A DNA stretch of 64,000 nucleotides, taken from IMG/VR virus record IMGVR_UViG_3300045988_177154, positions 128,001-192,000 of that record; one strand, 5' to 3'. Positions 3,256 through 58,645 of the stretch are shown one piece after another. The position numbers and the translations under genes were made by a program. The stretch is from a virus. The notes beneath the pieces were generated by a model. It worked only from the letters and a program-made list of their open reading frames with translations, made no database searches and was not told the DNA's origin. Positions within the stretch are counted from its first letter, which is position 1, and every line of letters begins with the position of its first letter.

Positions 3256-3375
3256 AGCGTCAGTTTAAGCAACGCTAAACTGTTTTATTGAAAACATGAA
3301 GAATGAATCGAAAGTTATGCTAAGCTGTTTTAGAGCGCTGTTAGTGACAGTGTAGCAATGTCTAAAACAAAATTG
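3256..3375. repeat. IGR-120 intergenic repeat, copy R1 (divergent, forward-like)
   Basis: Contains two TAAGCTGTTTTA-type words (ACGCTAAACTGTTTTATTG and TGCTAAGCTGTTTTAG) and TAGTGACAG, which resembles the TAGTGACGATATAAC end of other copies. Confidence 0.6.
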
Positions 3376-3458
3376 GAATAAAATATTTTTTGATTTACTT
3401 TTTTGAAAGATTTTGTTACAATAGATGAAATAAAAATAAAAAAGAAAAGAGATTCTAT

Positions 3459-4025
3459 ATGATAGATTCAAAACTATTAAAACCTCGTAGTGGCACTAAC
3501 AAGTGCAAGTTATTTATTAAAGGTGACTGGAATGATGCTGATTATATTACAGAAGATACCTCTTTGACTATTGACCAACTGAAAGAACTATTGCCCTATT
3601 TTAGTATTTTGTTGGATTTATTCAAATTTGACAATAATTATAGACGCAAAACTCGTGATTACAGAATAGATATTAGAGATGAGTTTAATAGTGCTTTAGC
3701 TTTTTATCTTGGCTACAATAAGAACTTCTACCCACAACTTTTAGAGTTAAAGAAAAATAAAGAAATCCTTTCAGATAGACTAATTGATTTAGATGAAGAT
3801 AATTTTGAAGATGTGTATTATACAGTACTTCTGAATATTAAGGACTTTAGTTATGACGAATTTTTGCCTTATTATGAAGGTTGGGGCATTCATAACATTG
3901 TGGATATGTATATTGATTACAAAGGTAATAAATATGATGTGTTACCAGGCAAATCATTAGAAGCTTTTGCAGAACTTATGGATATGGAGTATGACAACTT
4001 CTCTTGGAGCCATGAAGATGAATAA
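3459..4025 (+). CDS. Hypothetical protein
   Basis: 188-aa ORF with ATG start and a weak purine-rich RBS. Its 3' end overlaps the start of the following HTH gene. Confidence 0.6.
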   Translation: MIDSKLLKPRSGTNKCKLFIKGDWNDADYITEDTSLTIDQLKELLPYFSILLDLFKFDNNYRRKTRDYRIDIRDEFNSALAFYLGYNKNFYPQLLELKKNKEILSDRLIDLDEDNFEDVYYTVLLNIKDFSYDEFLPYYEGWGIHNIVDMYIDYKGNKYDVLPGKSLEAFAELMDMEYDNFSWSHEDE

Positions 4026-4353
4026 AGAAATAGGAAATCGAATAAAAACAATGAGAGAAAATGCTTCATTAACTCAAGATGAAGTTGCTAAATATCTTGG
4101 TATAAGCAAAGATAAATATGCTGGAATAGAATTAGGAATATTTACACCAACGTTAGTAATTCTAAATCAATTATCTAAGCTCTTTAAAGTTTCGGTAGAA
4201 ACACTAACAGAAAATAGTAAAGAATCAAATTATGCTGATTTTAATATAACAAAAGAAACAAAAGATAAACTTGATATGATTGACTTATTTTATGCTAACA
4301 AAAATTTATATAAAAAATTGATTTATCAGAAGCAAGGAAAAGGAGTAAACTAA
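4012..4353 (+). CDS. XRE-family helix-turn-helix transcriptional regulator
   Basis: IGNRIKTMRENASLTQDEVAKYLGISKDKYAGIELG is a typical Cro/C1 HTH. ATG at 4012 or 4018 preferred over the track start at 3967. Confidence 0.7.
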   Translation: MKMNKEIGNRIKTMRENASLTQDEVAKYLGISKDKYAGIELGIFTPTLVILNQLSKLFKVSVETLTENSKESNYADFNITKETKDKLDMIDLFYANKNLYKKLIYQKQGKGVN

Positions 4354-4371
4354 AACATTTACTCCTTTTTC
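4338..4371 (+). terminator. Rho-independent terminator
   Basis: AGGAGTAAA / TTTACTCCT stem spanning the stop codon, followed by a T-run. Confidence 0.7.
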
Positions 4372-4495
4372 TTAGTGTTAAAATAAGCAACTCTAAGCTG
4401 TTTTATTGAATGGTCGATACATTTATAGAAAATCAGTTTTGACTGTATTACTGTTTCACTAGTGACGATATAACGACATTCAAAATCAGTTTCAG
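4372..4495 (+). repeat. IGR-120 intergenic repeat, copy R2 (forward)
   Basis: CTCTAAGCTGTTTTATTG, a degenerate palindrome GTCGATACATTTATAGA, AAAATCAGTTTT, CACTAGTGACGATATAACG, CAAAATCAGTTT. Confidence 0.85.
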
Positions 4496-4526
4496 TATAT
4501 AGAAAAAGAGAGCAAATTGCTCTCTT

Positions 4527-5699
4527 TTATTTTGTCAGTGATTCAATAAATTCTTTTTTAGATTTTCCTTGGCAAGCAAGTTTTTTAGATTGCAAAATCA
4601 GTTCACCAAATTCTTTTGATGGTTTAAATCCAAGTTGAATTAACTCTTGACCTGTAATGAATTGTGTTGAAATTATTTCTTGACTCACTTTAAACATAGA
4701 AGTCAATAATTTAATTTCAAATGTTGGCAAACCTAGCTTAATACCTTGAACAAGAATTGAGAATAAAGCAAATTCTTTAAATTTGATTTGCTCTGTTTTG
4801 AAAACAAATTCTCCAACTGTTTTTGAATCTTTAATAAATGATGAAGTAACTTCAGCCAAGAATTTGAATGATTTAATCATTTCAACAATTTCTGTTTGAT
4901 TTGTGATTGTTAATTCAGAACTTTCAAAGATGAAAGCAATAACAATTTCTGTTACTTTCTCTGGGCATAATTCCTTTGTAGCTTGAGTTAATTTATCAAT
5001 CAATTCAAGTTTTAAAGATGTTGGGAAGAAATCTGTAAGCACTCCCATTTTTTCTAATTTCTTAAAGAATACAGATGGTTTTTCTGATTTAGTAATTGCT
5101 TTGTGAGTTTCTTCAAAAATTCGTTCCATTGGAAGAATAGAGCAATCAAGAGTTTTAGAAATTTCAATTGTTTCAGGTGCAATTTCAAATCCAAAGCGAG
5201 AAGCAAATTGAGCTGCACGAAATACTCGTAATGAATCTTCAGCAAATTTTTCAGTACAATGTCTAATGACACCAGTTTCTAAATCTTTCATTCCACCAAA
5301 GAAGTCAAGAATTTTACCTGTTTGTGTGTCTTTCATTAGAGCGTTGATTGTAAAATCTCGGCGTTCAGCAGCTTTTGCTTCACCAATAAATGGGTCAACA
5401 ACAATTTCAAAGTCAGTATGTTTTTCTCCAATTTGTTTTTCTGTACGAGGGAAACTAAAGTCGAAATCAGTTCCGTCCATGAAAGCTTTGTAAACGCCAA
5501 ATGACTTGCCCACAAAGTCAATTTTAATACCAAGAGATTTAGCAACAGAAATAAAATCATCTTCTGTAATAAAATGAATTTCAATGTCAATGTCTTTGTT
5601 AGTTTTGCCTAACACTTCATCTCGGACACAACCACCTACATAATAAGTTTTTGCTCCCTTTTCTGATAATTTTTTAAGTAGTGTTTTTAATTTAGTCAT
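4527..5699 (-). CDS. cca: CCA-adding enzyme (tRNA nucleotidyltransferase, class II)
   Basis: YYVGGCVRDEVLGK..KDIDIE head motif and RRDFTINAL motif of the PolyA-polymerase/CCA family. 390 aa. Confidence 0.85.
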   Translation of the reverse strand: MTKLKTLLKKLSEKGAKTYYVGGCVRDEVLGKTNKDIDIEIHFITEDDFISVAKSLGIKIDFVGKSFGVYKAFMDGTDFDFSFPRTEKQIGEKHTDFEIVVDPFIGEAKAAERRDFTINALMKDTQTGKILDFFGGMKDLETGVIRHCTEKFAEDSLRVFRAAQFASRFGFEIAPETIEISKTLDCSILPMERIFEETHKAITKSEKPSVFFKKLEKMGVLTDFFPTSLKLELIDKLTQATKELCPEKVTEIVIAFIFESSELTITNQTEIVEMIKSFKFLAEVTSSFIKDSKTVGEFVFKTEQIKFKEFALFSILVQGIKLGLPTFEIKLLTSMFKVSQEIISTQFITGQELIQLGFKPSKEFGELILQSKKLACQGKSKKEFIESLTK

Positions 5700-5730
5700 A
5701 AGTTTTTCCTCTTTCGTTTTCTATATTTAT

Positions 5731-5759
5731 ATGATACAACAAAAATTTCACTTTGTCAA
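5731..5759 (-). promoter_or_regulatory. Sigma-70-type promoter for cca
   Basis: On the minus strand: TTGACA, 17-nt spacer, TATCAT. Confidence 0.6.
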
Positions 5760-5776
5760 CAATAAAATAAAAAATA

Positions 5777-5805
5777 TTTACATTTTTAAAATTTTTTGTT
5801 ATAAT
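5777..5805 (+). promoter_or_regulatory. Sigma-70-type promoter for the Thg1-like operon
   Basis: TTTACA, 17-nt spacer, TATAAT. Divergent from the cca promoter. Confidence 0.6.
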
Positions 5806-5868
5806 GAATTTGTTCTCAAAAGGTGCTTAAAAAATTTGAATAAAATAAAATAAATTGGAGAACACAAA

Positions 5869-6663
5869 ATGAAAACACAAGATGTTATTGGAAACAAATA
5901 TAAAGCCTTGGAAAAGGAATATAGAGCAAAATTTGAAAGCAATAAATATTTAATTCTTAGATTAGATGGTAAAGCTTTCCACTCATTCACAAAAGGAATG
6001 AAAAAGCCATTTGATGAAAGATTATATGAAATCTTCAAAGAAACTTTGAAATACTTATGTGAAAATGTCGATGGCGTGAAAATTGGCTATTATCAATCAG
6101 ACGAAATCTCTTTGGTCTTATTTAATGATAGCCCTAAAATCAATAAACAATATTGGTTTGATAACAAAGTAGAAAAAATCCTTACTATTGCTACATCAAT
6201 CTGTACTGCTAAATTTAATTCTGAATATAACAAATTCGGACAATTTGGAGCTAAAGAGTTTGGCTTCTTCGATGCAAGAGGATTTGTAGTAGATACACTT
6301 GATGAAGTACAAGAATATTTAGAATGGAGAGTTAATGACTCTGTTAAAAATTCTGTTTATTTATATGCTTTTGATAAAGTGAAAGATAATAGCAATCCTA
6401 CTAAAGCTTTGATGAATATGTCTGTTAAAGAAAAGATTGATTTGTTAAAGAATGAATATGGAGTAGATTATTACAACTTTGAATCAAAATATAGAAAAGG
6501 AATTTTTTACTCTAAAGAGTATACTACATTCGTAGTTAAAAAAGAACAATACCCACAACATTTGAAAGAAGATAAGATTGTCACTAGAAGAAAATTCAAA
6601 TTACATGAAACTTTTGATAATGTTGCAGATATTGTTGACCATTTTAGAACGAAAGGTGAATAA
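5869..6663 (+). CDS. Thg1-like protein (tRNA-His guanylyltransferase family 3'-5' nucleotidyltransferase)
   Basis: LILRLDGKAFHSFTKGMKKPFDERL and YQSDEISLVL match the Thg1/TLP palm-domain motifs. Confidence 0.75.
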   Translation: MKTQDVIGNKYKALEKEYRAKFESNKYLILRLDGKAFHSFTKGMKKPFDERLYEIFKETLKYLCENVDGVKIGYYQSDEISLVLFNDSPKINKQYWFDNKVEKILTIATSICTAKFNSEYNKFGQFGAKEFGFFDARGFVVDTLDEVQEYLEWRVNDSVKNSVYLYAFDKVKDNSNPTKALMNMSVKEKIDLLKNEYGVDYYNFESKYRKGIFYSKEYTTFVVKKEQYPQHLKEDKIVTRRKFKLHETFDNVADIVDHFRTKGE

Positions 6664-6665
6664 TT

Positions 6666-7421
6666 ATGAGTAATAATCAGATTATTACTAGTTATAATAA
6701 AATTGCTTTTTTAGGTGACTTGCATGGAAATACAAATAATGCTTATAAGTTAATTGATTACATTATGGAACAAGATAATCCCGATTTGTTAATTCAAGTT
6801 GGAGATATGGGAGTAATGGGGGAGCTGTTTGAAAAATACCTAAATAAGCTAAATAAAAAATTGGAATCTTATAATATAGAGCTTTGGTTTATTGACGGCA
6901 ATCATGAGAATTTCAATTGGTTACTAAACAAAGTTAAAAATCCTCATGGACTCAATTCTATTACTTCTAAAATTAAATATATTCCTAGAGGAACAATGCT
7001 AACACTAGGAAAGAAAAACTTTTATTTTTGTGGTGGAGCCTTCTCTATTGATAAATTCATGAGAACTATTTATAAGAGTTGGTGGCCACAAGAAACTTTA
7101 TCCAAAGAAGAAACTGAAGAGCTAATCAATTATTACAATGAGAATTATAGTAATTATAAAATTGACTATTTTATCTCACATGATACTCCATTGTTTGACC
7201 ATTATCAAGATGATTCTATCTTTAGGAGTCAGGCAGATTTTTATGAAGATTACTTCCATAAGATGAATTTAAGTAAATTGTATGAACTAACTAAAGCTCC
7301 AAAAATTATTCATGGGCATTATCATACTTATAATAAATTTGAAAAAGATGGTATTGAAAATATTACTCTTAATTGTGATAGCTCTCCATTTGAAGAACAA
7401 TATATTATTGTGGAAGTGTAA
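6666..7421 (+). CDS. Calcineurin-like metallophosphoesterase
   Basis: Motif series IAFLGDLHGN, VGDMG, GNHEN, ISHDTP, IHGHYH. Starts 3 nt after the Thg1-like stop. Confidence 0.75.
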   Translation: MSNNQIITSYNKIAFLGDLHGNTNNAYKLIDYIMEQDNPDLLIQVGDMGVMGELFEKYLNKLNKKLESYNIELWFIDGNHENFNWLLNKVKNPHGLNSITSKIKYIPRGTMLTLGKKNFYFCGGAFSIDKFMRTIYKSWWPQETLSKEETEELINYYNENYSNYKIDYFISHDTPLFDHYQDDSIFRSQADFYEDYFHKMNLSKLYELTKAPKIIHGHYHTYNKFEKDGIENITLNCDSSPFEEQYIIVEV

Positions 7422-7488
7422 CTCAGAGTTGACTTTTTATTGATTTTATGATAGAATGGAAGAAAATAAATTTTAAAAGGGTGAAGAA

Positions 7489-8496
7489 ATGACAATAGAT
7501 AAAAAAGCTTTAGAATATAGAAATGAAGCAATTCAACTAAGAGAAGAATATGAACAAAGAGCTAAAGAATTAAAGAATTTAGATAATACAACAAAAGAAT
7601 GGTTTGATGGAATTGATGAAAATAGAAGATTTTTCTTTAAAGCTCTTTTGCCTGAATACAAATTCTTAAGTTATCTGAATGATGAACAATTAGCGAAATT
7701 TACTGAACATCGTATGGGTAAACCAAGAAAAGAAAATCCTAATTATAACTTTCACCCAGAGATTACTGACTATAACAGAAGTAATTGCTTAAATCTTATG
7801 AGTGCTATTTCAGGTAAAACAATTGAACAAATTATTAAAGTTAGAGATAAACTTGAAAATATGACTGAATTAGAAGCTTATCGCTATATTATGGAACGTA
7901 TTCCATTACGAACTGATAAGCCAATTGTTGCTTTGGATTTAGAAGCCGCTTCACCTAGTCTTCGGGATATGAATAATAAATTTGACTTTGGTCCTCGTAC
8001 AGAAATTATTGAAGTTGGTTATATTAAAGTTTGGCCTGATGGTAAAGTTAAGAAATTCTCTAAATTATTTGGTGTAGACCCAAATTTACTTAAAACTAAT
8101 GGAACTGGTAGAGAAGATATTCACAATATTTCCCCGAACGACATTAAAGATTTACCTAGATTTGTTGATGATTTAGAAGCTCAAAAAGAAATCTATAATG
8201 ATTTGAAAGATTCTATTTTATTGGCTCATAATGCTCGTTATGAAAAGGGGCAACTATCTCATTCATTGAGGGGCTTTAATAAACTTATGAAAGAGAATAG
8301 ATTAGAAGTTATTGATACAATGCACTTATCTCAATTCTTTATGCCTCAAAATGAAAATAATACTAACGAAGCTTTTGTTACTAATACTGGTGGAAAATAT
8401 GAAGAAGCTCATAGAGCCTTTGCTGATGCACTAATGTCATTAAATGCTTTTATGAGATATTTTAAAAAACCAGAAATTAAAATCAAAAAGGATTAG
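7489..8496 (+). CDS. DEDD(h) 3'-5' exonuclease (DnaQ/RNase T-like) with an unknown ~140-aa N-terminal domain
   Basis: ExoI IVALDLEAAS, ExoII LLAHNARYEKGQL, ExoIII HRAFADAL. Confidence 0.7.
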   Translation: MTIDKKALEYRNEAIQLREEYEQRAKELKNLDNTTKEWFDGIDENRRFFFKALLPEYKFLSYLNDEQLAKFTEHRMGKPRKENPNYNFHPEITDYNRSNCLNLMSAISGKTIEQIIKVRDKLENMTELEAYRYIMERIPLRTDKPIVALDLEAASPSLRDMNNKFDFGPRTEIIEVGYIKVWPDGKVKKFSKLFGVDPNLLKTNGTGREDIHNISPNDIKDLPRFVDDLEAQKEIYNDLKDSILLAHNARYEKGQLSHSLRGFNKLMKENRLEVIDTMHLSQFFMPQNENNTNEAFVTNTGGKYEEAHRAFADALMSLNAFMRYFKKPEIKIKKD

Positions 8497-14202: not shown

Positions 14203-14543
14203 AAATATTTTTGGACGATTTAAGACCAGTACCAGATGAATTTGATTTAGTATTTAGAAGCGGTAAAGCATTACTGAAATACTTAAAAGAAAATCCTAAT
14301 CAACATTATGAGTTAATCTCATTTGACCATGATTTAGGAGAAAACACTTTAACTGGCTATGATGTAGTAAAAGAAATTGTAGATGATTTAGACATTAACT
14401 TTACTTTTGATAGATTTCAATTTCACACTGCCAATGTAGTTGGATTTAGGAATATGTATTATTACTTAGTAAATGCTCAAATTTATGATTTATTCCCACC
14501 TGGTATTATAGATAAAAATTTAAAGACTTACACAAGTGTATAA
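14199..14543 (+). CDS. Receiver-like domain protein, resembles the cyclic-phosphate-processing receiver (cREC) family
   Basis: MKIFLDDLRPVPDEF...ELISFDHDLGE..LTGYDVVKEIV matches my memory of the cREC pattern (LDD.R.P, S.DHDLG, TGYDV). GTG start overlaps the upstream stop. Confidence 0.45.
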   Translation: MKIFLDDLRPVPDEFDLVFRSGKALLKYLKENPNQHYELISFDHDLGENTLTGYDVVKEIVDDLDINFTFDRFQFHTANVVGFRNMYYYLVNAQIYDLFPPGIIDKNLKTYTSV

Positions 14544-14655
14544 CTGATTTTGAGGGTTGTTATATCGTCATATAAGCAACGCTAAAACAGTTAAAACTGA
14601 TTTTCGATAAATGTATCGAAAGTCTACAAAAGCAGCTTAAAACAGCTTAAAATTA
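14544..14655 (-). repeat. IGR-120 intergenic repeat, copy R3 (reverse)
   Basis: CTGATTTTGAGGGTTGTTATATCGTCATATAAGCAACGC, palindrome TCGATAAATGTATCGA, AAAAGCAGCTTAAAACAGCTTAAAA. Reverse complement of the R6/R7 arrangement. Confidence 0.85.
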
Positions 14656-14718
14656 CATTAGCAAATTTGCCAAAAAACTATATAAAGGAATAAAATTAGA
14701 AAGACAAAAGGCAACAAA

Positions 14719-15345
14719 ATGACTACGTTTAAAGAACTTACTAAAAAATATAACTGTACAGCAAAATGTCAATCACTTTTAGAGCGACTTGATATGGTAG
14801 AAGAAAAATTTGAGCAATTCAGTAACAAACATCAAATTGATGAACACTATGGATTAGACTTTGACTTTCTTTATGGGGACTTTACTTGGAAACCTAAATT
14901 AACTCAAAAACGCACTATTCAAGAGCATTTAGTAACTAATCACGAATTGATTGAAGAATTGAAAAATCTCTCTGATGAAGATTTTATTAAAGTGATGTCT
15001 ACTATGGAAAGTGATTTGCTAAAAGCATTTGCTTATCACATTGTTAATATTACTGGCCTGGCTATTTATTACAATTGCTTATTCAAAATAGACCAATTAA
15101 GAAATGTTAACCAAGACTTTAAAGAAACGATAAATTACAAGGACGAAGATATTACTATTTCAAAAACATATGATTACTTTGTTATGAATTACAAAGATTA
15201 TTTATGTATTCATTATTTTAAAAATGATAGAATGTTTTCATTTTCAAATCCAAGCCTCAAAACTAATGAGATTGAATGTCTTAAAGATTTTGAAGAGCAG
15301 GTTGAAAAAGATGTGGAGTTCTTGATTGAATTTTTGAATAGTTAA
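14719..15345 (+). CDS. Family C paralogue 1 (short form), hypothetical
   Basis: N-terminus MTTFKELTKKY and C-terminus VEFLIEFLNS are shared with the 15426 and 17219 products. Confidence 0.65.
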   Translation: MTTFKELTKKYNCTAKCQSLLERLDMVEEKFEQFSNKHQIDEHYGLDFDFLYGDFTWKPKLTQKRTIQEHLVTNHELIEELKNLSDEDFIKVMSTMESDLLKAFAYHIVNITGLAIYYNCLFKIDQLRNVNQDFKETINYKDEDITISKTYDYFVMNYKDYLCIHYFKNDRMFSFSNPSLKTNEIECLKDFEEQVEKDVEFLIEFLNS

Positions 15346-15371
15346 AGATAGCACTTTATGTGCTATTTTTA
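15344..15371 (+). terminator. Rho-independent terminator (duplicated with family C)
   Basis: ATAGCAC / GTGCTAT stem followed by a T-run. Near-identical to the terminator at 16715. Confidence 0.7.
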
Positions 15372-15425
15372 GTTACTTTTTCAGAAAAAATATTATATAA
15401 TACAATAAAGAAAAGGAGTAAAAAT

Positions 15426-16715
15426 ATGACTACATTTACAGAATTACTTAGAGAAGCAAAAGATGAACCAAAAATAAAGATTAAAGAGCGGCCAATAAAT
15501 TTAGACTTACAAAAGACTATTGATTCATTAAATAAAATGTTTAATGAAAATTGGACTCCATTATTTGATGAAAATAAAGAATATGAATTATGGGATAAGT
15601 ATAATTCTCACATTTATTTTGGCAAAGATTATAAATATGTATTACTAGCAGGCAAAACACCAATCAACAAAGTTGAATTATTACCTGTAAATTGGCTTTT
15701 TATTAAGAAATTTCCTTACTCAACAAAGATTTTATATGTTATTGTTTTAAGAGAATTGGTACAACAAAAATTGAGTGCAAAATTTAGTGAAGCTATCTCA
15801 GTCTCTGGTTTAGCTGAAATCTTTGATGATGTACAAGATTTAGATTATTTAATAAAGAGCATGAATAATGTTTTAGGTGAGAATACACTTATTGAAAAAG
15901 ATAATAGTATTAAATTCAAAAATGAAATAATTTCAGTACCTAACTTACAACTAATGAAAGATTGTTATAATGTTAAAAATGAAGAGCTTTTTGATGCCAT
16001 TACTTCAAAACATTATGAAGAAATAAATTTAGATTTATTTAATATGCTCAATACACATGAGAAGATTTATCCTACTCTTATTAAATTACTTAACAAATTG
16101 AAAACTCTATATCTTGATGAAGTACACACTTATTACAAAGATGAATGTATTAAATATGCTGAAGCTGAATTTGAAATACTTTGTGAGGATTATTCTATCA
16201 ATCCAAACCATTATGTTTTATGTCCAGTTATCTTTAAGAATAAATTAACTTGGGATATAAGGTCTAAAAATAGACTTAAGCTTCCTACTTTTTATCTATT
16301 GAATCATTGGAGCACTCATAAAGCTATGAAATCAATTTCTGAATCTGCTTTTCGTGAAAGCTTGGGTTCTATGGTAAAACCTATTGAAGATGAAGCTCTG
16401 CGTTTAGAATGTAATTCTACAGTTGATAAGATTGTTAATGAATCATTAAAACCAATTAAGAAGCTTAATTTATCAATGAGAGATTTAGATAATGAAATTG
16501 ATTTTAACAGTTGTAAAATAAATGTAAAGACCAAAGACGGCAAACTTACTCTAAAATACAAAGACTATACTTTCCATGTACCTTATTACTCTCCAAATAG
16601 TGTTCACACTTATTTTGAAAAAGAAAATGGAATTGAAGATAATAAAATTTGGGCAAAAACAAAAGAAGATATTCAAACAGTTGCTGATTTGTTCATTGAA
16701 TTTTTAAATAGTTAA
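15426..16715 (+). CDS. Family C paralogue 2, hypothetical
   Basis: ATG at 15426 with an AGGAG RBS (the track GTG at 15360 lies inside the terminator). Motifs MTTFTELLREAK, NENWTPLFDENKEYELW, C-terminal LFIEFLNS. Confidence 0.7.
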   Translation: MTTFTELLREAKDEPKIKIKERPINLDLQKTIDSLNKMFNENWTPLFDENKEYELWDKYNSHIYFGKDYKYVLLAGKTPINKVELLPVNWLFIKKFPYSTKILYVIVLRELVQQKLSAKFSEAISVSGLAEIFDDVQDLDYLIKSMNNVLGENTLIEKDNSIKFKNEIISVPNLQLMKDCYNVKNEELFDAITSKHYEEINLDLFNMLNTHEKIYPTLIKLLNKLKTLYLDEVHTYYKDECIKYAEAEFEILCEDYSINPNHYVLCPVIFKNKLTWDIRSKNRLKLPTFYLLNHWSTHKAMKSISESAFRESLGSMVKPIEDEALRLECNSTVDKIVNESLKPIKKLNLSMRDLDNEIDFNSCKINVKTKDGKLTLKYKDYTFHVPYYSPNSVHTYFEKENGIEDNKIWAKTKEDIQTVADLFIEFLNS

Positions 16716-16748
16716 AAGATAGCACAAATTTGTGCTATTTTTTATTTT
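16715..16748 (+). terminator. Rho-independent terminator (duplicated with family C)
   Basis: ATAGCACA / TGTGCTAT stem followed by a T-run. Confidence 0.7.
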
Positions 16749-16752
16749 TCTA

Positions 16753-16781
16753 TTGACAAACTAAAAATTATATAATATAAT
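16753..16781 (+). promoter_or_regulatory. Sigma-70-type promoter
   Basis: TTGACA, 17-nt spacer, TATAAT, followed by ATAATAGAC as at 35741. Confidence 0.7.
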
Positions 16782-16810
16782 AGACTTATACAATGAAAGG
16801 AAGATAAAAA

Positions 16811-17176: not shown

Positions 17177-17218
17177 AACATTACTTAATTAAATTTTAAA
17201 AATAGAAAGAATAAAGAA

Positions 17219-27830: not shown

Positions 27831-27942
27831 ACTGCAGTCTGAGCTGTTTTATCAATGGTTAGGGTTAACTATCAAAAATAACTCCAAACTGTTGCTAAAA
27901 CAGCTTTTCAGCGTTTAGCAACAATACTAATAACGATATACA
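27830..27942 (+). repeat. IGR-120 intergenic repeat, copy R4 (forward, divergent)
   Basis: ACTGCAGTCTGAGCTGTTTTATCAATGG, AAACTGTTGCTAAAACAGC, CTAATAACGATATAC. Ends about 30 nt before the next start codon. Confidence 0.7.
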
Positions 27943-27970
27943 AAATAAAAATTTCAAAGAGGTATTTTTA

Positions 27971-31430: not shown

Positions 31431-31548
31431 CGCTAAATCAGTTTAAGGGTTGTTATATCGTCATATAAGCAACGCTAAAACAGTTAAAATTAACTTTCGA
31501 TACATTTATCGACTTTGAAGTAAAACAGCTCAAAACAGCTTAAACTTA
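31431..31548 (-). repeat. IGR-120 intergenic repeat, copy R5 (reverse)
   Basis: GGGTTGTTATATCGTCATATAAGCAACGCTAAAACAG is shared with R3. Palindrome TCGATACATTTATCGA, then AAAACAGCTCAAAACAGCTTAAAC. Confidence 0.85.
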
Positions 31549-31566
31549 AATAGAAAAGAGAATAAA

Positions 31567-35554: not shown

Positions 35555-35583
35555 GAAATGCTTTAATTAGCATTTCTTATTTT
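35553..35583 (+). terminator. Rho-independent terminator of folD
   Basis: AAGAAATGC / GCATTTCTT stem followed by a T-run. Confidence 0.75.
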
Positions 35584-35692
35584 AAGCGATTTTAAGCAGT
35601 TTTTCTTTAAAGTCGATACATTTATCGAAATCACGATTTTAGGATTTTACTGTATTACTAATGACGATATAACAACCCTCAAAATCAGTTTT
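35580..35692 (+). repeat. IGR-120 intergenic repeat, copy R6 (forward)
   Basis: TTTTAAGCGATTTTAAGCAG, GTCGATACATTTATCGA, TACTAATGACGATATAACAACCCTCAAAATCAGTTT. Confidence 0.85.
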
Positions 35693-39003: not shown

Positions 39004-39047
39004 CTATTTGTAATTGAAAAAAGATTATTTAAGAAAGGAAAAATAAT

Positions 39048-43763: not shown

Positions 43764-43797
43764 AAAAAGAGCTATCTAAGATAGCTCTTTTCTTTTT
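43764..43797 (+). terminator. Rho-independent terminator
   Basis: AGAGCTATC / GATAGCTCT stem followed by a T-run. Confidence 0.8.
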
Positions 43798-43798
43798 G

Positions 43799-43922
43799 TT
43801 TTAAGCGATTTTAAGCGACTCTAAGCTGTTTTTATTATAAGTCGATACATTTATCGAAAATCAGTTTTTACAGTCATAGCGTTTCACTAGTGACGATATA
43901 ACGATATTCAAAATCAGTTTGA
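43799..43922 (+). repeat. IGR-120 intergenic repeat, copy R7 (forward, most complete)
   Basis: TTTTAAGCGATTTTAAGCGACTCTAAGCTGTTTTT, GTCGATACATTTATCGA, AAAATCAGTTTTT, CACTAGTGACGATATAACG, CAAAATCAGTTT. Confidence 0.9.
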
Positions 43923-43962
43923 GAACATTATTCCAACCGAAAGTTTTTAATTCTATTCTTAT

Positions 43963-48277: not shown

Positions 48278-48379
48278 TGTTAATATTTCTTATCATTTGG
48301 CTTAAAGAAGTTTTACAAGGTGACGATGGTTTGGTTCTGAAAAGGCAAAAGGGTTACAATGCCGTTTCTTTTTATTTTT

Positions 48380-48453
48380 GGACCATTAGCTCAATTGGTC
48401 AGAGCACCCGGCTCATAACCGGATGGTTGCAGGTTCGAACCCTGCATGGTCCA
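48380..48453 (+). tRNA. tRNA with CAT anticodon (elongator Met, or Ile2 if lysidinylated)
   Basis: Hand-folded cloverleaf: acceptor GGACCAT/ATGGTCC, D-arm GCTC-AATTGGTCA-GAGC, anticodon loop CTCATAA, T-arm GCAGG-TTCGAAC-CCTGC. No encoded CCA. Confidence 0.85.
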
Positions 48454-48588
48454 TTCCTAGTTTGGCATATAGTCGACTATGCTAATATTGGTAGGGCCCG
48501 TTAGTGACCCCATATTGAGTTCTAAATCCAGTAACGTAACGGACGATAGTTCTGAATATGAATGTAGGTTCGATTCCTATCTAGGAAA
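48454..48588 (+). ncRNA. tRNA-like element E2, ~134 nt (too long for a canonical tRNA)
   Basis: Starts directly after the Met tRNA. Perfect 7-bp acceptor-type stem TTCCTAG/CTAGGAA, canonical T-arm GTAGG-TTCGATT-CCTAT, 6-bp D-like stem GGCATA/TATGCT. About 78 nt lie where a 17-nt anticodon arm plus variable loop belongs, and I could not fold a clean anticodon arm. Confidence 0.3.
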
Positions 48589-48617
48589 TAAAAATTTAAA
48601 TTTTTTAAATTTTTCTA

Positions 48618-48647
48618 TTGACTTTGCTTAAAATTGTGATATAATAA
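48618..48647 (+). promoter_or_regulatory. Sigma-70-type promoter of the second RNA cluster
   Basis: TTGACT, 18-nt spacer including a TG, TATAAT. Confidence 0.6.
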
Positions 48648-48693
48648 TATTATCGGATATGACAAAAGCATCTAAATGATGCTCCTTTCTTAT

Positions 48694-48767
48694 GGCCTGC
48701 TAGCTCAATTGGATAGAGCACACGCCTTCTAAGCGTGCGGTTATAGGTTCGAATCCTATGTGGGCCA
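48694..48767 (+). tRNA. tRNA-Arg (TCT)
   Basis: Acceptor GGCCTGC/GTGGGCC, D-arm GCTC-AATTGGATA-GAGC, anticodon arm CACGC-CTTCTAA-GCGTG, T-arm ATAGG-TTCGAAT-CCTAT. No encoded CCA. Confidence 0.85.
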
Positions 48768-49144
48768 TTACTTAGACTCGGACAGCTATCTCATTTAATA
48801 TAGGAAAAATACATTAAAGATACAGTCACCAATTTTTTAAAACAATTTTAAAACGAATTTACGAGTCTAGAATTTAGGAACGAACAGCAATCCTTTTCTA
48901 AACAACTATTAAAGCTAAATAATAATTTGAAATGAAAAAGAGAGTTCCTAGTTTGATTTAAGGGGTTTCTTGTGAAGTTAAATTAGTTCAAAACTAATAA
49001 CTCCTATAAAGCGGGGCCTTTGATTTCCCCCGCTTGAAAATCACTAAAAATAAATGCTCCTAAGAATTTATTTTTTGTTTTTTTCGTTTCTTTTCATTTC
49101 ATTCCGCTTGGGTAATACTTCCTCCTGTTACCCAAGTACATTAT

Positions 49145-49215
49145 TACGGGTTAGTGAAAAGGTATCACATAGGGCTCATTACCCTAAATTGGGGGTTCGA
49201 ATCCCTCGCCCGCAA
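49145..49215 (+). tRNA. Atypical tRNA with CAT anticodon (initiator-like anticodon stem)
   Basis: Acceptor TACGGGT/GCCCGCA with an A2xC71 mismatch. D-arm GTGA-AAAGGTA-TCAC. Anticodon arm TAGGG-CTCATTA-CCCTA has three G:C pairs next to the loop and T at position 37. T-arm GGGGG-TTCGAAT-CCCTC. Confidence 0.6.
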
Positions 49216-49240
49216 TTTCCATTGGCTACCACCGACAAAA

Positions 49241-49294
49241 AGCTCACTAATTCCAATCATAAAGATTGAAAATTAGTGAGCTTGGTGTTTTTTA
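49241..49294 (+). terminator. Rho-independent terminator of the RNA cluster
   Basis: 12-bp stem AGCTCACTAATT / AATTAGTGAGCT followed by a T-run. Confidence 0.8.
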
Positions 49295-49317
49295 TAAACA
49301 TGAAAGAAGGTTAATAA

Positions 49318-50424
49318 ATGAAATATAGTTACTCATACTATAATGAAGAAGATTTTGATACTTATGTTAAACAATTTGATAATTATTCTTTGCTTCAAAG
49401 TAGAGAATGGGGTGCAGTAAAAAGCCCTATATGGAAAAATAAAAAAGTTTTATTCTATGAAAATGAAAAAGTAGTAGGAACTGCCCTAATTCTTATTAGA
49501 GAAATTGCTTTTCATAAAAACTTTATCTACATTCCTTATGGGCCGCTTTTTGATTATTCTAATAAAGAATTATTTAACTTTGTAACAGAAAGCTTAAAGA
49601 AAATTGCTAAAGAAAATAAAGCAATTTTTGTAAAAGTAGTTCCACCTGTATTTGATGATAATTCTATTAGTGTCGATTTCAAAATTAACGGTTGGGTAGA
49701 AAATGTTACTGAAAAATCTTTTGATTCTATTCAACCAAAATTAAATGCTGTAATTAAAGATTTCAAAATGAGTAAAAGAATGAAACAAGAAAGACGAACA
49801 ACAGAAAATAAAAATGTACATTCTGTTTATTCTATTGACACTGAAGCTTCTTTTGAAACATTATTACATGATTTTTATTCTTTGACTAAATTAACTGAAA
49901 AAAGACAAGGTATTAAATTAAGAAATAAAGATTATTTCAGACAATTACTATATAGATACCCAAATTCATTCATTACTGTTTCTTATATTGATAAGGAAAA
50001 ACAAATTGCTAAATTAAATGAAGAATATAATAAATCAAATAGTGAAAAAGCTAAACAAGAATTAGAAAAACTTAAACATAATCAAGCTAAAAACATTCCG
50101 ATTTCAGGCACTCTTACTGTAATTTATGGAGATACGGCAGAATTACTCTATGCGGGATTTGACGATAATTTCAAATCATATAATTCTGCTTCTTATTCTT
50201 GGAGTAATTCTATTATGAAAGCTTTTGAGCTTAATCCTAATCTTAAATATGTAAATTTAGGTGGAGTAGAAAATGATGGGCACTTGCTAAACTTTAAAAA
50301 GAAATTCCACCCAGAGATTAGAACTTCTTGTAATGAATTTGATTTACCAATTAGTCCTTTATACTATTTATTCAAATTTGCTCTAAAACATAAGAAACTT
50401 ATTCTCAAATTTATCAAAAAATAA
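49318..50424 (+). CDS. FemAB/MurM-family aminoacyl-tRNA-dependent peptidoglycan peptidyltransferase
   Basis: LLQSREWGAVK, YIPYGPLFDYS, AIFVKVVPP, a coiled-coil insert (EKQIAKLNEEYNKSNSEKAKQELEKLK), then GTLTVIYGDTAELLYAGFDD and YVNLGGV. This is the FemABX layout. Confidence 0.7.
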   Translation: MKYSYSYYNEEDFDTYVKQFDNYSLLQSREWGAVKSPIWKNKKVLFYENEKVVGTALILIREIAFHKNFIYIPYGPLFDYSNKELFNFVTESLKKIAKENKAIFVKVVPPVFDDNSISVDFKINGWVENVTEKSFDSIQPKLNAVIKDFKMSKRMKQERRTTENKNVHSVYSIDTEASFETLLHDFYSLTKLTEKRQGIKLRNKDYFRQLLYRYPNSFITVSYIDKEKQIAKLNEEYNKSNSEKAKQELEKLKHNQAKNIPISGTLTVIYGDTAELLYAGFDDNFKSYNSASYSWSNSIMKAFELNPNLKYVNLGGVENDGHLLNFKKKFHPEIRTSCNEFDLPISPLYYLFKFALKHKKLILKFIKK

Positions 50425-50563
50425 AATTACTTGATATAATATATAAAGAGGGGTTAACTACTACTCTTCTTTATATATTGATTGTCAATAAATTTAATCT
50501 TAATGGTTGCAAAATAAATTTATTTTTGATACAATATTTAAAATGATATTTTATAAACTTTTT

Positions 50564-50652
50564 GGAGAGGTACTCAAGTCTGGTTAAGAGGACGGTTTGC
50601 TAAGCCGTTAGGTCGTTAATTCGGCGCGTGGGTTCGAATCCCATCCTCTCCA
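50564..50652 (+). tRNA. tRNA-Ser (GCT), type II with a long variable arm
   Basis: Acceptor GGAGAGG/CCTCTCC, anticodon arm ACGGT-TTGCTAA-GCCGT, 19-nt variable arm, T-arm GTGGG-TTCGAAT-CCCAT. Discriminator is A. No encoded CCA. Confidence 0.85.
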
Positions 50653-50696
50653 TATTTTATACATTAAAAAACTTTCAATAAGAAAGGAGCATAACT

Positions 50697-52640: not shown

Positions 52641-52750
52641 GCATAAAACGCAGTTTAGGACAGCTAGAGAACAGCTAATAAAATCATATACAAACTAACA
52701 TAAGTATTGCTCAAACAGCTTAGGAACAAACTACTGCTGTCTGAGTGCAA
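52641..52750. repeat. IGR-120 intergenic repeat, copy R8 (degenerate, mixed orientation)
   Basis: CAAACAGCTTAGG (reverse word) followed by ACTGCTGTCTGAG (the forward start seen in R4 and R10). Follows the rmlB terminator. Confidence 0.5.
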
Positions 52751-52771
52751 AATAGAAAGGGTTTTTAACTT

Positions 52772-54635: not shown

Positions 54636-54689
54636 ATATAAATTAAAAGTTATTTAGCTTATCCTAAATAACTTTTTTATATTTAGAAA

Positions 54690-54790
54690 GGAGTCTAAGC
54701 TGTTTTATATATAGGCAATAAAAACTATCATATATTACCGTAAACTGTCTTAGCTGCTGTTTTAACAACAGCTAATATGATTTTAAAGTA
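54690..54790 (+). repeat. IGR-120 intergenic repeat, copy R9 (forward, divergent)
   Basis: GTCTAAGCTGTTTTAT, AAACTGTCTTAGCTGCTGTTTTAACAACAGC. Confidence 0.6.
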
Positions 54791-54890
54791 ACACCTTATC
54801 TTTATTAAATATTGATAGTTTAACTATAATATAAAAACCTAAAATAAAAGAATAATATAAATAAAAGAAGAAATTTAAAAGGAGTACAAA

Positions 54891-55840: not shown

Positions 55841-56323
55841 ATGAATGGAATTGTTAAAAATGAATATACTGAAATTCAAAAGTATTTTGATGATTACTAT
55901 AAAGAACAATTAGAAAAATATGAAGAGTTGAAGTATTATGATAATTACTTATTTACGAACATTGAGGACGAACCAATTTATTGGGGATTTGGTATTATTG
56001 TTCTAATATTAGTTAGTATAATAGCTGACAAGTCTCAATATGAATTTTGGAACTATGTGTTTTTTGCAGTTTTAGGAATTTTTATTTTATTCACAATTTT
56101 AATATTCTTCAAAGCTGTATTTTGGAATTATGAGTTTAAAAAATCTAAAAAGACTTTCTTTAAACATTATTATAAATCTAAAAATATTAGAACAGTAACA
56201 AGATATTTAGGTGTTAATAAATCAGATTTGCTTTTTAATGAAGATTATATTATAATCGGTCTTAATATTAAAGATGAAAAACAACTAAATAAACTAGAAA
56301 GAGAACTTAAAAATGGAAAATAA
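55841..56323 (+). CDS. Array B paralogue 1 (two-TM membrane protein), hypothetical
   Basis: Starts 5 nt after the trxB stop. NEYTEIQKYFDDYYKEQLEKYEE, two TM helices, C-terminal KQLNKLERELKNGK. Confidence 0.65.
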   Translation: MNGIVKNEYTEIQKYFDDYYKEQLEKYEELKYYDNYLFTNIEDEPIYWGFGIIVLILVSIIADKSQYEFWNYVFFAVLGIFILFTILIFFKAVFWNYEFKKSKKTFFKHYYKSKNIRTVTRYLGVNKSDLLFNEDYIIIGLNIKDEKQLNKLERELKNGK

Positions 56324-56873
56324 TTTAGTAGAACTTAAATACGATAAAGTAAATGAATATTTTGAGAATTTCAAGAAGAAATATACAAGTAATTATGAAG
56401 AAAACAAAACAAAAGGCTATCGTACTGTAATTCCTTATCGTATGTTAATCAGTCCCACTATTATGAGTGTAATTAGTATCGTTGTTGCTTATGTAACAAA
56501 TACTATATTATCAGATTTACCAAAAATAAACTCGAATGATACAGCTGGGGCAATATATAGTATATATGAAGTTTTAGTATCATGGATATTTCCAGTAATG
56601 ATTCTTACTTCATTATCTCACCTTTTAGTAACTTTTGTTAGAATGGGGTTCAATTCTTATGACGTACCTATTTCTTACAAAAAAATAGACTACTATAATA
56701 AAATCAAAACAAGAATGTTAAATGAGATACAAACAGATTTAAACACTCCAATTACAGAGAATATGCTTATTTTAGATGCAAATGGGTTGATTGTTGCTCC
56801 TAATCTAAGTAATAATGAAAACAAAAAGATTTTTGGAGAAATAGAAAGGAATCTTAAAACAAGTGAAAAATGA
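56313..56873 (+). CDS. Array B paralogue 2
   Basis: Overlaps the upstream gene by 11 nt. NNLVELKYDKVNEYFENFKKKY, TM helices, ITENMLILDANGLIVAPNLSNNENKKIFGEIERNLK. Confidence 0.7.
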   Translation: MENNLVELKYDKVNEYFENFKKKYTSNYEENKTKGYRTVIPYRMLISPTIMSVISIVVAYVTNTILSDLPKINSNDTAGAIYSIYEVLVSWIFPVMILTSLSHLLVTFVRMGFNSYDVPISYKKIDYYNKIKTRMLNEIQTDLNTPITENMLILDANGLIVAPNLSNNENKKIFGEIERNLKTSEK

Positions 56874-57432
56874 TTTAGTAGAACTAAAACTTGATAGAAT
56901 TGACCGCTATTTTGAAAAATTTAAAACAAAATATAAACTTCATTATGAACTTAATAAAACAAATAAGACACATTTGGTATTACCTTATCAGAAGTTAATA
57001 ATGCCTGTAATATTTATTTTTATTGGTATTATTACTTTTCTTATGACTCGTGTTATATATTGGCAAATAAGCAATTTTTCATCTAGCATGACATTATCAA
57101 GTTTTAATGAAGCTGCAATGTTGCTCATAAATATTTTATCTATTGTTTTATTGGGTGTACTCTCACTTTTGATTGTGACTCATCTTATTGACTTTTTTAA
57201 AAATATTCATAAAGAAACTATTGAATATACGAAAAAAGAATACTACAACAAAATTAAATCTATTATGATTGAGCAAATCCAATCAGAATTAAGTAATCTA
57301 ATTACTGAAGATATGCTTACATTTGATTTAGATGGGTTAATTATAGCTCCAAACTTAAATACTAATGAAAATATAAAGTTATTTAAAGAAATAGAAAGGG
57401 ATTTAAAGTTAAATGAGCAACAATCTCATTGA
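56863..57432 (+). CDS. Array B paralogue 3
   Basis: GTG start overlapping the upstream gene by 11 nt. NDLVELKLDRIDRYFEKFKTKY, ITEDMLTFDLDGLIIAPNLNTNENIKLFKEIERDLK. Confidence 0.7.
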   Translation: MKNDLVELKLDRIDRYFEKFKTKYKLHYELNKTNKTHLVLPYQKLIMPVIFIFIGIITFLMTRVIYWQISNFSSSMTLSSFNEAAMLLINILSIVLLGVLSLLIVTHLIDFFKNIHKETIEYTKKEYYNKIKSIMIEQIQSELSNLITEDMLTFDLDGLIIAPNLNTNENIKLFKEIERDLKLNEQQSH

Positions 57433-57997
57433 GCTCAAATATGATAGAGTCAAAGGATTCTTTGATGAAATGATAGCTAAATATGAAGTTGAGTATCAAA
57501 ATAATAAAACAACAACTGAAAAAATATATGTTAGTAATGTTAGAAGAGTATTAGAGTCTATCCTAATTATTTTTATTATGATTGCTTTTTGTGGGGGGCT
57601 AATTTGGTTCATAAAGAGTGGCTCCAATTACACTAAGACTGAATTTACAGATAAATTTATTAAGGTAATAGATGAAGATGTAATTCCATTATTAGCACCA
57701 TTTGTTGGTATTATTTTTGTTGGTTTGATAAATATTAAACTAATGAAAGTCATTCTTGGAATAAGGCCTAACAATGAAACAAGAACAATAACAAAAACTC
57801 TATCAAAAAAGAAATATTTCACCAAAATCAAAGCAGATATGCTCTATTACGTTAGATACAATTTAAGTTATTCCATTACAGAAAATATGCTTATCTTTGA
57901 TAAATATGGTATGATAATTGGGCCCGACTTAAGTACTAATGAAAACAAGAAAATATTTGGCGAAGTAGAGCATAAATTGGAGCAAAAGAATGAATAA
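57413..57997 (+). CDS. Array B paralogue 4
   Basis: Overlaps the upstream gene by 20 nt. NNLIELKYDRVKGFFDEMIAKY, ITENMLIFDKYGMIIGPDLSTNENKKIFGEVEHKLE. Confidence 0.7.
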   Translation: MSNNLIELKYDRVKGFFDEMIAKYEVEYQNNKTTTEKIYVSNVRRVLESILIIFIMIAFCGGLIWFIKSGSNYTKTEFTDKFIKVIDEDVIPLLAPFVGIIFVGLINIKLMKVILGIRPNNETRTITKTLSKKKYFTKIKADMLYYVRYNLSYSITENMLIFDKYGMIIGPDLSTNENKKIFGEVEHKLEQKNE

Positions 57998-58508
57998 TAT
58001 AGTAGAATTTGGTTACCCTAATTTAGATAACTACTTTAAGGATTTGTTAGAAATCCAAAAGAAAAAATATGAAGTAAAAAAAGAGAAATGGCAAAATCAT
58101 TTTAAGGAATTTTTCTCTAAAGCTATTCCAGTTGTAATAAGCATGATTATTGTTTCAATCTTAAATCATTTAATAACTTTAGATTATCCTAATGCTGTTA
58201 AATTGATTCTTGTTATAGGTGATGTTATATCAGCTATTTATGTTTTTGTGAATGGTTTTGTTTTCCTATTTCATCTTCCATTATTCTTTATTTCTTCATA
58301 TGTTGTATTTAAAGAGATAGCAAATTACAAAAGCTATAACGAACGAGAAACACTTAGAACAATTAAAGATGATTTAGATGTTTATTTAAATAGCTCAAAC
58401 GTTATTATCAATTCTAAGGGCTTCATAACCGATTTAAAACGTGATGATAAAGAGCTCTGTCAAAAAATAGAAGAACATTTAAAAACAAACAAAAAAGAAG
58501 TTATTTAG
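57990..58508 (+). CDS. Array B paralogue 5 (divergent)
   Basis: Overlaps the upstream gene in the junction ATGAATAA. NNIVEFGYPNLDNYFKDLLEIQKKKY, TM helices, KELCQKIEEHLK. Confidence 0.65.
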   Translation: MNNIVEFGYPNLDNYFKDLLEIQKKKYEVKKEKWQNHFKEFFSKAIPVVISMIIVSILNHLITLDYPNAVKLILVIGDVISAIYVFVNGFVFLFHLPLFFISSYVVFKEIANYKSYNERETLRTIKDDLDVYLNSSNVIINSKGFITDLKRDDKELCQKIEEHLKTNKKEVI

Positions 58509-58530
58509 CTTTTGCTAAATGACTTTTTTA

Positions 58531-58645
58531 ATAACGCTTACTGCTGTTTTAAGCTGTTTTTATGAAGAGTCGATATATTTATCAAAAATAGATTTTTACT
58601 GTTTTAGCGTCTTACTAGTGACGATATAACATATACTAAAATGAA
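58531..58645 (+). repeat. IGR-120 intergenic repeat, copy R10 (forward)
   Basis: CTTACTGCTGTTTTAAGCTGTTTTTAT, GTCGATATATTTATCAA, TTACTAGTGACGATATAAC. Ends about 30 nt before the next start codon. Confidence 0.85.

Follow-up and report, generated by a model that had tools for sequence, protein, structure and literature searches.

Results

A block-structured intergenic repeat on a giant replicon

A family of ~115-bp non-coding repeats is dispersed through the intergenic regions of a 64,000-nt stretch of DNA (positions 128,001 to 192,000 of the IMG/VR virus record IMGVR_UViG_3300045988_177154; hereafter the window) and of related giant replicons from oral metagenomes. Each unit combines five nearly invariant blocks with hypervariable linkers and stands at the same place in related genomes, and we tentatively interpret it as a docking site for protein encoded by the element itself.

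The replicon carrying the repeat measures 260–385 kb at 25–31% GC and was recovered in IMG/VR and in metagenome contigs. It is probably an Inocle, a circular plasmid-like element of 245–395 kb that was described from oral Streptococcus in 2025 (PMC12340149), to judge by its size, GC content, sortase/LPXTG/S26 content and load of insertion sequences (IS). Two independent pattern scans of IMG/VR found 69 and 82 loci (~58 of the 82 on contigs of this replicon family), and a scan of metagenomes found at least 120. Grouping 118 copies by their unique flanks gave 28 groups, 27 of them with usable flanks, or ~27 orthologous loci. At least 20 loci are present in a 315-kb genome and at least 19 in a 281-kb genome, roughly one per 12–15 kb, and 348–387 ortholog pairs are colinear on both flanks between genomes. 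A divergent lineage, L118, with DNA only ~77–80% identical, 25% GC and an RNase T protein 66% identical, has copies at the sites of the window copies R1 and R3 (Table 1) and one more.

A two-block pattern, TCGATANATNTATC-N30-45-TGACGATATAAC, had 0 matches among 185,579 species genomes (one genome per species). A 19-mer holding the palindrome block had 19 scattered single matches, none on a record named Streptococcus. By these counts the repeat is not a generic BOX/RUP-type miniature inverted-repeat transposable element (MITE) of the host chromosome, the alternative raised alongside the original prediction, in which the repeat had been noticed from the sequence of the window. The consensus had no match in the plasmid and phage collections by sensitive blastn, and a literature search for the repeat motifs returned only chance matches to an 11-mer. 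The words “intergenic” and “promoter” are absent from the main text of the Inocle paper, where three uses of “repeat” concern other things (PMC12340149). Within the reach of these searches, the family has no earlier description; it is of a familiar type, that of bacterial interspersed intergenic repeats. Its unusual features are its confinement to a giant extrachromosomal element, its architecture of blocks and hypervariable linkers, and its positional stability.

Invariant blocks alternate with hypervariable linkers

The consensus unit begins with two or three TTAAGC(G/T) words at 10-bp phase, followed by blocks A to E. Block A (CTAAGCTGTTTT) is joined by a variable segment, s1 (~9 nt), to block B (GTCGATACATTTATCGAAA), a 6-N4-6 palindrome; s2 (~6 nt) leads on to block C (TTTTAACTGTTTTAGCG), s3 (~9 nt) to block D (TGACGATATAAC) and s4 (~8 nt) to block E (AAAATCAGTTT(GAGC)). 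Block centres lie ~23 bp apart as read off the consensus. The original prediction had named the shared blocks correctly: the TTTAAGC/TAAGCTGTTTT words, the 6-N4-6 palindrome, two AAAATCAGTTT words and TAGTGACGATATAAC, the conserved part of which is CGATATAAC. Blocks A and C are variants of a single word, TAA[G]CTGTTTT, and because the AAAATCAGTTT word occurs twice, the unit may have descended from an internal duplication. All six reading frames are rich in stop codons by inspection, and the 4-nt loop of the palindrome is found in both orientations, CATT and AATG, as at DNA palindromes.

Between orthologous copies, the mismatch rate was ~0 in the blocks, ~15% in the unique flanks and 30–45% in s1, s3 and s4. 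As a control for ascertainment, we used 129 unique metagenome copies picked through blocks C and D only. Block B was exactly TCGATACATTTATCGA in 89 of the 129, the remainder being mostly recurrent variants (TTGATGGTTTTATCGA, TCGATATATTTATCGA and the flipped TCGATAAATGTATCGA), and block A was YTRAGCTGTTTT in ~115. Since blocks A and B are kept among copies selected through other blocks, their conservation is not an artefact of how the copies were found. R3 and its orthologue in the 20%-diverged L118 lineage are identical in every block, and their differences fall in s1–s3.

The segments draw on a small repertoire of alleles found at more than one locus; in s3, for example, TTGCTTATAT is present at 8 loci and TTTCACTAGT at 6. 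Orthologues of one locus show the alleles reshuffled, with the outermost locus-specific ends unchanged. This sharing and reshuffling indicates that the linkers are swapped by short-tract gene conversion between copies, which would also raise segment divergence above the neutral level. Homogenisation alone would not give invariant blocks next to diverse segments, and from this we infer that the blocks are under selection.

A tentative protein-docking role

We lean, at less than even confidence, towards the repeat being a REP/BIME- or BOX-like, element-specific composite double-stranded DNA site that docks one or more element-encoded proteins and has an orientation-independent organisational role, because its five blocks are nearly invariant. 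The blocks would be recognition words for one or more sequence-specific DNA-binding proteins of the element, with, for example, a dimer on the palindrome and partners on the flanking words. The sites would serve the architecture of the replicon irrespective of their direction, through compaction, partition or supercoil management, and not as promoter, operator or RNA. Breakage or stalling at the sites, repaired from other copies, could then generate the mosaic gene conversion. The blocks are near-constant at ~27 fixed loci regardless of orientation or transcriptional context. The earlier suggestion that they are binding words for an element-encoded protein fits this pattern of conservation better than RNA does.

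Several points weigh against the docking-site reading. Protein binding and any benefit to the replicon are both conjectural. The ~23-bp block spacing and the 10-bp phased T-tracts are readings of the consensus. The XRE-type helix-turn-helix (HTH) gene adjoining the repeat (3967–4353) is a candidate binder by position only, as is a weak HTH-like match at 39783–40874. Gene conversion combined with element-level selection for copying could mimic purifying selection, and some copies (R1, R4, R8/R9-type) are decaying, as a selfish repeat would. Finally, the imperfect inverted words at the termini (CTCTAAGCTG-TTTT / AAAATCAGTTTGAGC) are compatible with a transposon origin.

The XRE-type HTH gene, which resembles antitoxin or RstR-type repressors, is overlapped at its start by orf188, a gene of no family (3459–4353 for the two). 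In three genomes R1 and R2, in direct orientation, lie on either side of the two genes, which may form a toxin-antitoxin-like or regulatory pair; the HTH protein is a candidate binder of the palindrome.

A more ambitious version of the docking idea, which we consider unlikely, is that the ~25 copies amount to a private “address code”, at which a machine encoded by the element would dock or cleave and so organise or segregate the 300-kb replicon without relying on the host chromosome. The machine might be, for example, the element's own topoisomerase/gyrase or a ParB- or HUH-like protein. Its activity would lead to frequent copy-to-copy conversion, and thus to segments that change faster than neutral flanks beside invariant blocks.

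Copies in the window

A repeat finder recovered the family in the window as direct (D1, D5, D11) and inverted (I1–I6) repeats of 110–124 nt at 70–85% identity. The two-block pattern has 5 matches in the window versus 0 in 100 dinucleotide shuffles, and the word AGCTGTTTT occurs 11 times in the 64 kb, 10 of the 11 inside the ten loci that had been listed by the original prediction. We graded these ten loci with a profile hidden Markov model (HMM) built from the copies (nhmmer; Table 1). The prediction of an intergenic repeat in both orientations stood, in that the family is genuine and all copies are intergenic, and the count of ten proved too high: six loci are strong, one is decayed, two are distant and one, R8, is spurious. 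The R8 locus was rejected as a member; its only likeness to the family is an 11-nt word on the opposite strand, AACAGCTTAGG, the block A word in reverse complement.

Table 1. Repeat loci in the window, with the block positions of the reference copy R7
Feature	Position	HMM extent	Strand	Assessment
R1	3256..3368	3245-3372	+	decayed copy; nhmmer E=1.6e-8
R2	4374..4494	4361-4511	+	full copy; nhmmer E=6e-36
R3	14540..14660	14530-14669	-	full copy; nhmmer E=2e-34
R4	27831..27953		+	distant subfamily; main HMM E~0.5, subfamily HMM 6e-24
R5	31432..31550	31430-31556	-	full copy; nhmmer E=5e-32
R6	35577..35691	35566-35698	+	full copy; nhmmer E=1e-29
R7	43803..43922	43790-43931	+	full copy; nhmmer E=7e-37; reference copy
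R7 TTAAGC words	43799-43831			word search
R7 block A (CTAAGCTGTTTT)	43821-43832			word search
R7 block B palindrome	43842-43857			word search
R7 block C	43865-43881			word search
R7 block D (TGACGATATAAC)	43891-43902			word search
R7 block E (AAAATCAGTTTGAG)	43910-43923			word search
R8	52641..52770		.	unsupported as member; nhmmer E=14
R9	54687..54814		+	distant subfamily; main HMM E~0.5, subfamily HMM 4e-28
R10	58531..58650	58524-58667	+	full copy; nhmmer E=6e-30

R1 retains blocks A and C, has lost the palindrome and has block D decayed to TAGTGACAGTGTAGC; the terminator of a PFL-like gene precedes it and the promoter of the orf188/HTH operon follows, and the divergent lineage has a better-kept orthologue (L118 4925–5067). 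R2 lies in the spacer where the HTH gene and the gene for the CCA-adding enzyme converge, with orthologues in the related genomes G7339 and G7220 and none at this site in L118. R3 directly adjoins the stop codon of a cREC_REC-domain gene. R5, with the palindrome loop flipped (TCGATAAATGTATCGA), lies within an operon and has neither a terminator nor a promoter on either side. A folD-like terminator precedes R6, and the consensus promoter of the TelA operon follows it (TTGACA-17-TATAAT at 35718–35746, promoter scan), while R7 lies 3' of the terminator of the LPXTG protein gene. R10 has the palindrome TCGATATATTTATCAA and ends 24 nt before the ATG at 58674, its 3' end running into the ribosome-binding region. 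The statement that most copies sit after a terminator thus holds for part of them; R3 and R5 follow directly on the upstream stop codon, and no terminator intervenes.

R4 and R9 are mutual homologues, and like the main family they have CTRAGCTGTTTT-N37-ACTGT, with its 37-nt spacing unchanged. R4 retains only CTGAGCTGTTTT-N37-ACTGT of the main family and has an inverted repeat of its own, GTTGCTAAA...TTTAGCAAC. The subfamily HMM found orthologues of R4 at L044 4876 and L084 4582, and one of R9 in L080. The hairpins before R9 (54645–54678) and R10 (58494–58527), terminator-like by eye, are themselves homologous (34 nt, 82%), and several forward copies at other loci have a common ...ATAGCTCTTTTTCTTTTTGT terminator; the repeated unit seems to extend into the upstream terminator in some subfamilies.

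Positional stability and the question of mobility

The main rival to the docking-site reading is a MITE-like non-autonomous mobile element or relic maintained by conversion. It would have spread early, its blocks would be transposase or recombinase sites, and it would have no function for the replicon; we regard this as possible, if doubtful. The copies are dispersed, intergenic and in both orientations, and they have internal sub-repeats and imperfect inverted words at the termini (CTCTAAGCTG-TTTT matching the reverse complement GCTCAAACTGATTTT at ~12/16, with a left end set by the variable number of TTAAGC words). Subfamilies and decayed copies exist (R1; R4/R9; the TTGATGGTTTTATCGA variant at at least 5 loci), presence is in part lineage-specific (R2 is not in L118, L118 1814–1943 not in the window, R9 not in G7339), and the host replicon is IS-rich (PMC12340149). 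However, we found no target-site duplication, and among 387 ortholog pairs no clean empty site: where a copy is missing, the adjoining terminator or genes differ too, as at the R2-less site of L118 and the R9-less site of G7339, where the neighbouring sequence has been replaced. The copies are ~70% identical to one another, yet they hold the same loci in genomes 10–20% diverged, which argues against recent movement. Conservation extends to internal blocks and not termini alone, and is kept while the neutral flanks diverge. Nor do the repeats resemble the ends of the examined TnpB IS elements. The original suggestion of a MITE-like element is thereby reduced to its imperfect terminal words, with no target duplication, clean empty site or matching IS end beside them.

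We also rejected an IS200/605 PATE or omega-RNA origin, the repeat being unlike the ends of the TnpB elements in L001 and L084. TnpB-type IS are polymorphic between genomes (L084 8028–9532, beside the R5 orthologue in G7339; L117 19577–21002; L001 18860–20077), and an IS607-like element with a serine recombinase and TnpB splits the cREC_REC-domain gene in L117 and not in L118.

Transcriptional context and possible regulatory roles

By locus, 13 repeats are oriented opposite to co-directional flanking genes and 9 in the same direction, 5 lie between convergent genes and 0 between divergent genes. Neither the enrichment in convergent spacers (p=0.07) nor the absence from divergent spacers (p=0.19) is significant. 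Many copies follow the order terminator, repeat, promoter, gene; others (R5 and loci 8, 12, 14 and 24) lie within operons with no terminator or promoter. Neither a sigma-70 promoter (-35/-10 with 16–18-nt spacing) nor an intrinsic terminator (GC-rich hairpin and T-run) was found within the repeat, both adjoining it instead.

A regulatory cassette, in which blocks C-D-E would act as an outward non-canonical promoter, used for example by the element's own sigma factor, or the palindrome as the operator through which an XRE-type repressor controls the gene downstream, seems unlikely to us on this evidence. Three forward copies (R10 and loci 12 and 20) do lead straight into a ribosome-binding site, ending 19–30 nt before the start codon with no other promoter, and R1 lies immediately upstream of the promoter of the HTH operon. 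Block D has ATATAAC in common with a second, strongly conserved and promoter-like motif, GGAATAATATAACTATAAG, which occurs six times in the window, all upstream of genes; a weak outward promoter at R10-type loci is possible for this reason, and an RpoS-like sigma factor is reported for Inocles (PMC12340149). Against this, half of the loci are oriented against their flanking genes, the distance to the next promoter or start codon varies, many loci have a consensus sigma-70 promoter of their own downstream, the flanking genes are functionally unrelated, and the repeat has no internal sigma-70-like site. Because copies stand in both orientations, between and inside operons, there is no fixed promoter or operator geometry. 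The proposal that R4 and R10 supply a promoter is not supported, no sigma-70-like site being predicted in either.

The second motif, (T/A)GGAATAATATAACTATAAG, lies on the + strand at 589, 836, 28940, 38192, 46401 and 54850 of the window. It stands 30–80 nt upstream of start codons, always gene-oriented, often right after a terminator and with no -35 hexamer. In other genomes, several repeat copies in reverse orientation have it downstream as well. The motif resembles a promoter class of its own, perhaps -10-only or served by the element's own sigma factor. Near-consensus sigma-70 promoters (TTGACA-17-TATAAT) occur at 12279, 16735, 24016, 34330–34374, 35700–35749, 38957–39006, 46943 and 5727/61093. 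Because they are embedded in repeated contexts of 35–60 nt (repeat families D8, D13, D14, D18, I7 and I10), these promoter regions form a repeat family of their own. Resemblances to the ComR-box, com-box, sigma-D -10, Cheo-box and phiX/pC194 nick-site were rejected, since matching bases fall partly in variable segments or need indels.

Synteny around the copies

The original prediction held that the repeats bracket multi-gene modules and might be recombination boundaries for module shuffling. Modules would then be inserted, deleted or shuffled at the copies by site-specific or homologous recombination. We compared the whole window with the regions syntenic to it in two related genomes (G7339 and G7220; 69 and 72 kb), a test unbiased by the repeats. 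Only four repeat sites (R1, R3, R5 and R9) fell at one of ~21 breakpoints, about what chance would give for ~10 of 85 intergenic regions by a rough estimate. Most breaks lie elsewhere, and R2, R6, R7 and R10 are colinear in both genomes. The best-resolved insertion of a two-gene module (L036) contains a repeat and is bounded not by repeats but by duplicated promoter sequence, and no recombinase is linked to the copies. Module boundaries are accordingly an improbable function, one that we retain at low probability because the junctions at R1 and R3 are exact.

Some breakpoints do lie at or within ~25 nt of the 5' end of a copy. At R1, an extra segment in G7220, bracketed by inverted copies, separates the PFL-like gene from R1; at R3, a 745-bp gene indel abuts the 5' end in both related genomes; and at R5, a TnpB IS lies ~20 nt from the 5' end in G7339. 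Genes are locally permuted around loci 6, 8 and 25, and one-sided sharing of flanks favours the 3' flank (136 versus 58). At R9, the terminator and repeat are replaced in G7339 by a different terminator. In G7220 (L067/L040), compared with window 3226–3256, the inverted pair consists of a reverse copy on the side of the PFL-like gene and R1 on the other, and an LPXTG gene ends just before R1.

Replication-signal and RNA readings

A single-strand initiation signal of the ssoA/ssi type would prime the complementary strand in replication or after conjugative transfer. The ssoA origins of rolling-circle plasmids from Gram-positive bacteria are likewise non-coding, ~120–150 nt long and hairpin-bearing, and contain TAGCGT (PMC6395029, PMC8860593). 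This hexamer, their CS-6 (PMC6395029), is included in block C of the repeat, which is also ~120 nt long and has a hairpin, and VirB4/VirD4 are reported on the replicon (PMC12340149). In contrast to ssoA, the repeat has neither the RSB motif (TTTATGCCGAGAAAA) nor extensive conserved secondary structure. Single-stranded DNA folding z-scores are mostly -0.2 to -1.7, and one allele combination alone beats shuffles. The copies lie on both strands of one replichore-like stretch (5 versus 2 in the window), and there are ~25 of them on a theta-type giant replicon. We therefore rate this reading as very improbable. An integron attC-type site was rejected as well, given the mixed orientation, the lack of a core-site match (RYYYAAC/GTTRRRY) by inspection and the lack of an integrase seen near copies.

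Least credible of all is a structured non-coding RNA or small-RNA gene: copies inside operons are necessarily transcribed, and the TTGATGGTTTTATCGA palindrome still pairs on the forward strand through G-T wobbles, but Rfam gave nothing meaningful even at E<=10 (only tRNAs at the gathering threshold), RNAalifold on 6 and then 64 non-redundant copies returned only the 6-bp hairpin in the consensus with 0 compensatory pairs, the repeat occurs in both orientations relative to transcription, and the majority of copies lie between terminator and promoter. Changes in other predicted helices disrupt pairs, and mutual information is limited to neighbouring columns, reflecting short-range haplotypes and not base pairs. 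A check of covariation against binding words, proposed with the original prediction, thus went against RNA structure and in favour of protein-binding words as the better fit. Two candidate structures were rejected: an extended hairpin with changes compensatory by eye (CTGCAA/TTGCAG, TGTAA/TTACA; permutation test p=0.46), and a hairpin in the right half (GTTGCTTATA/TATAACAAC), which is allele-specific only.

Gene content of the replicon

The window has 27–33% GC, and nearly all of its genes share one strand. They encode a PFL-like glycyl-radical enzyme, a CCA-adding enzyme, Thg1-like and RNase T-like proteins, DHFR, an S26 signal peptidase, FemAB, an LPXTG protein, TelA and an FtsK-like ATPase, along with four tRNAs and many family-less open reading frames (ORFs). 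Homologues of the window proteins lie on metagenome contigs of 0.2–1 Mb, such as an ENA scaffold of 324,805 bp, and 25 kb of the window had no megablast match in deposited phage and plasmid collections. The contigs reached through two remote RNase T homologues, P0009 and P0012, are unrelated (41% and 62% GC) and do not carry the repeat.

Functions related to tRNA are concentrated in two clusters of this plasmid-like element, one with the CCA-adding enzyme, Thg1-like protein, a metallophosphatase and RNase T-like exonuclease (4527–8496), the other with tRNA-Met, -Arg, -Met and -Ser adjoining the FemAB-family gene (48379–50653). Related genomes differ in length largely within three tandem arrays of family-less paralogous genes (55841–58508, 21455–24891 and 14719–18562), made up variously of five ORFs of ~170–190 aa (~550-bp period), three or four of ~280 aa, and ORFs of 208, 451 and 447 aa. 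Upstream of the PFL-like gene, the divergent lineage has six tandem 21-bp units (TTTTTCAGTATTTTTGGTTAC-like; L118 2280–2403), and no tandem array was seen at the matching place in the window.

Discussion

The first description of Inocle-type giant elements dates from 2025; the saliva of most people is reported to contain them, and they have not been maintained in liquid culture. The repeat offers a handle on the biology of this newly discovered and so far uncultivable replicon, the docking mechanism being a proposal: it could be used in pull-down or chromatin immunoprecipitation (ChIP) to find proteins acting on the replicon. It also provides a sensitive and specific sequence marker for Inocle-type elements in short-read metagenomes and would allow gene conversion between dispersed copies to be measured in a natural setting. 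Should it prove to be no more than a decaying MITE, it would be of use mainly as a marker and as an explanation of breaks in assemblies.

Among known systems, Correia/bcr1 MITEs resemble the repeat in size, intergenic dispersal, subfamilies, decayed copies and inverted end words. The repeat differs from them in lacking clear terminal inverted repeats, target duplications and empty sites, in the low mutual identity and fixed positions of its copies, and in its conserved internal blocks. The KorB OB sites of IncP-1 plasmids and the stoperators of cluster A mycobacteriophages are 13–17 bp long and have a known binder, and stoperators are oriented with transcription. As with such sites, ~10–30 intergenic copies with an operator-like palindromic core are spread over one replicon and absent from the host, and as in a dispersed operator- or centromere-like system, conserved words under apparent selection recur at many loci of a single replicon. 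Unlike them, the repeat is a 115-bp composite of five different blocks with no orientation rule.

Pneumococcal BOX, built of boxA-boxB-boxC modules, and RUP are chromosomal repeats present in ~100 or more copies with a predicted stable fold, RUP having IS630-type ends. The repeat shares with BOX (and RUP/SPRITE) probably the host genus, a modular intergenic organisation over ~100–200 bp, both orientations and the possibility of co-transcription. It is set apart by the 0 matches of its two-block pattern in the species genomes and by the lack of a conserved fold. The REP/BIME sequences of enterobacteria are interspersed and extragenic, often lie 3' of transcription units or between convergent genes in either orientation, and are thought to dock gyrase, IHF and Pol I rather than encode anything. 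REP units are strong palindromes of 35–40 bp; a chromosome has hundreds of them, clustered in alternating orientation, and they have a cognate RAYT transposase. By comparison, the repeat forms single ~115-bp units with one palindrome of 6-bp arms, at ~20–28 copies on one extrachromosomal replicon family, and no Y1-transposase (RAYT-like) domain was present among the genes listed for L001 and L117–L118. Like REP/BIME, it is extragenic, lies at the ends of or inside transcription units in either orientation, and combines conserved motifs and a palindrome with variable linkers.

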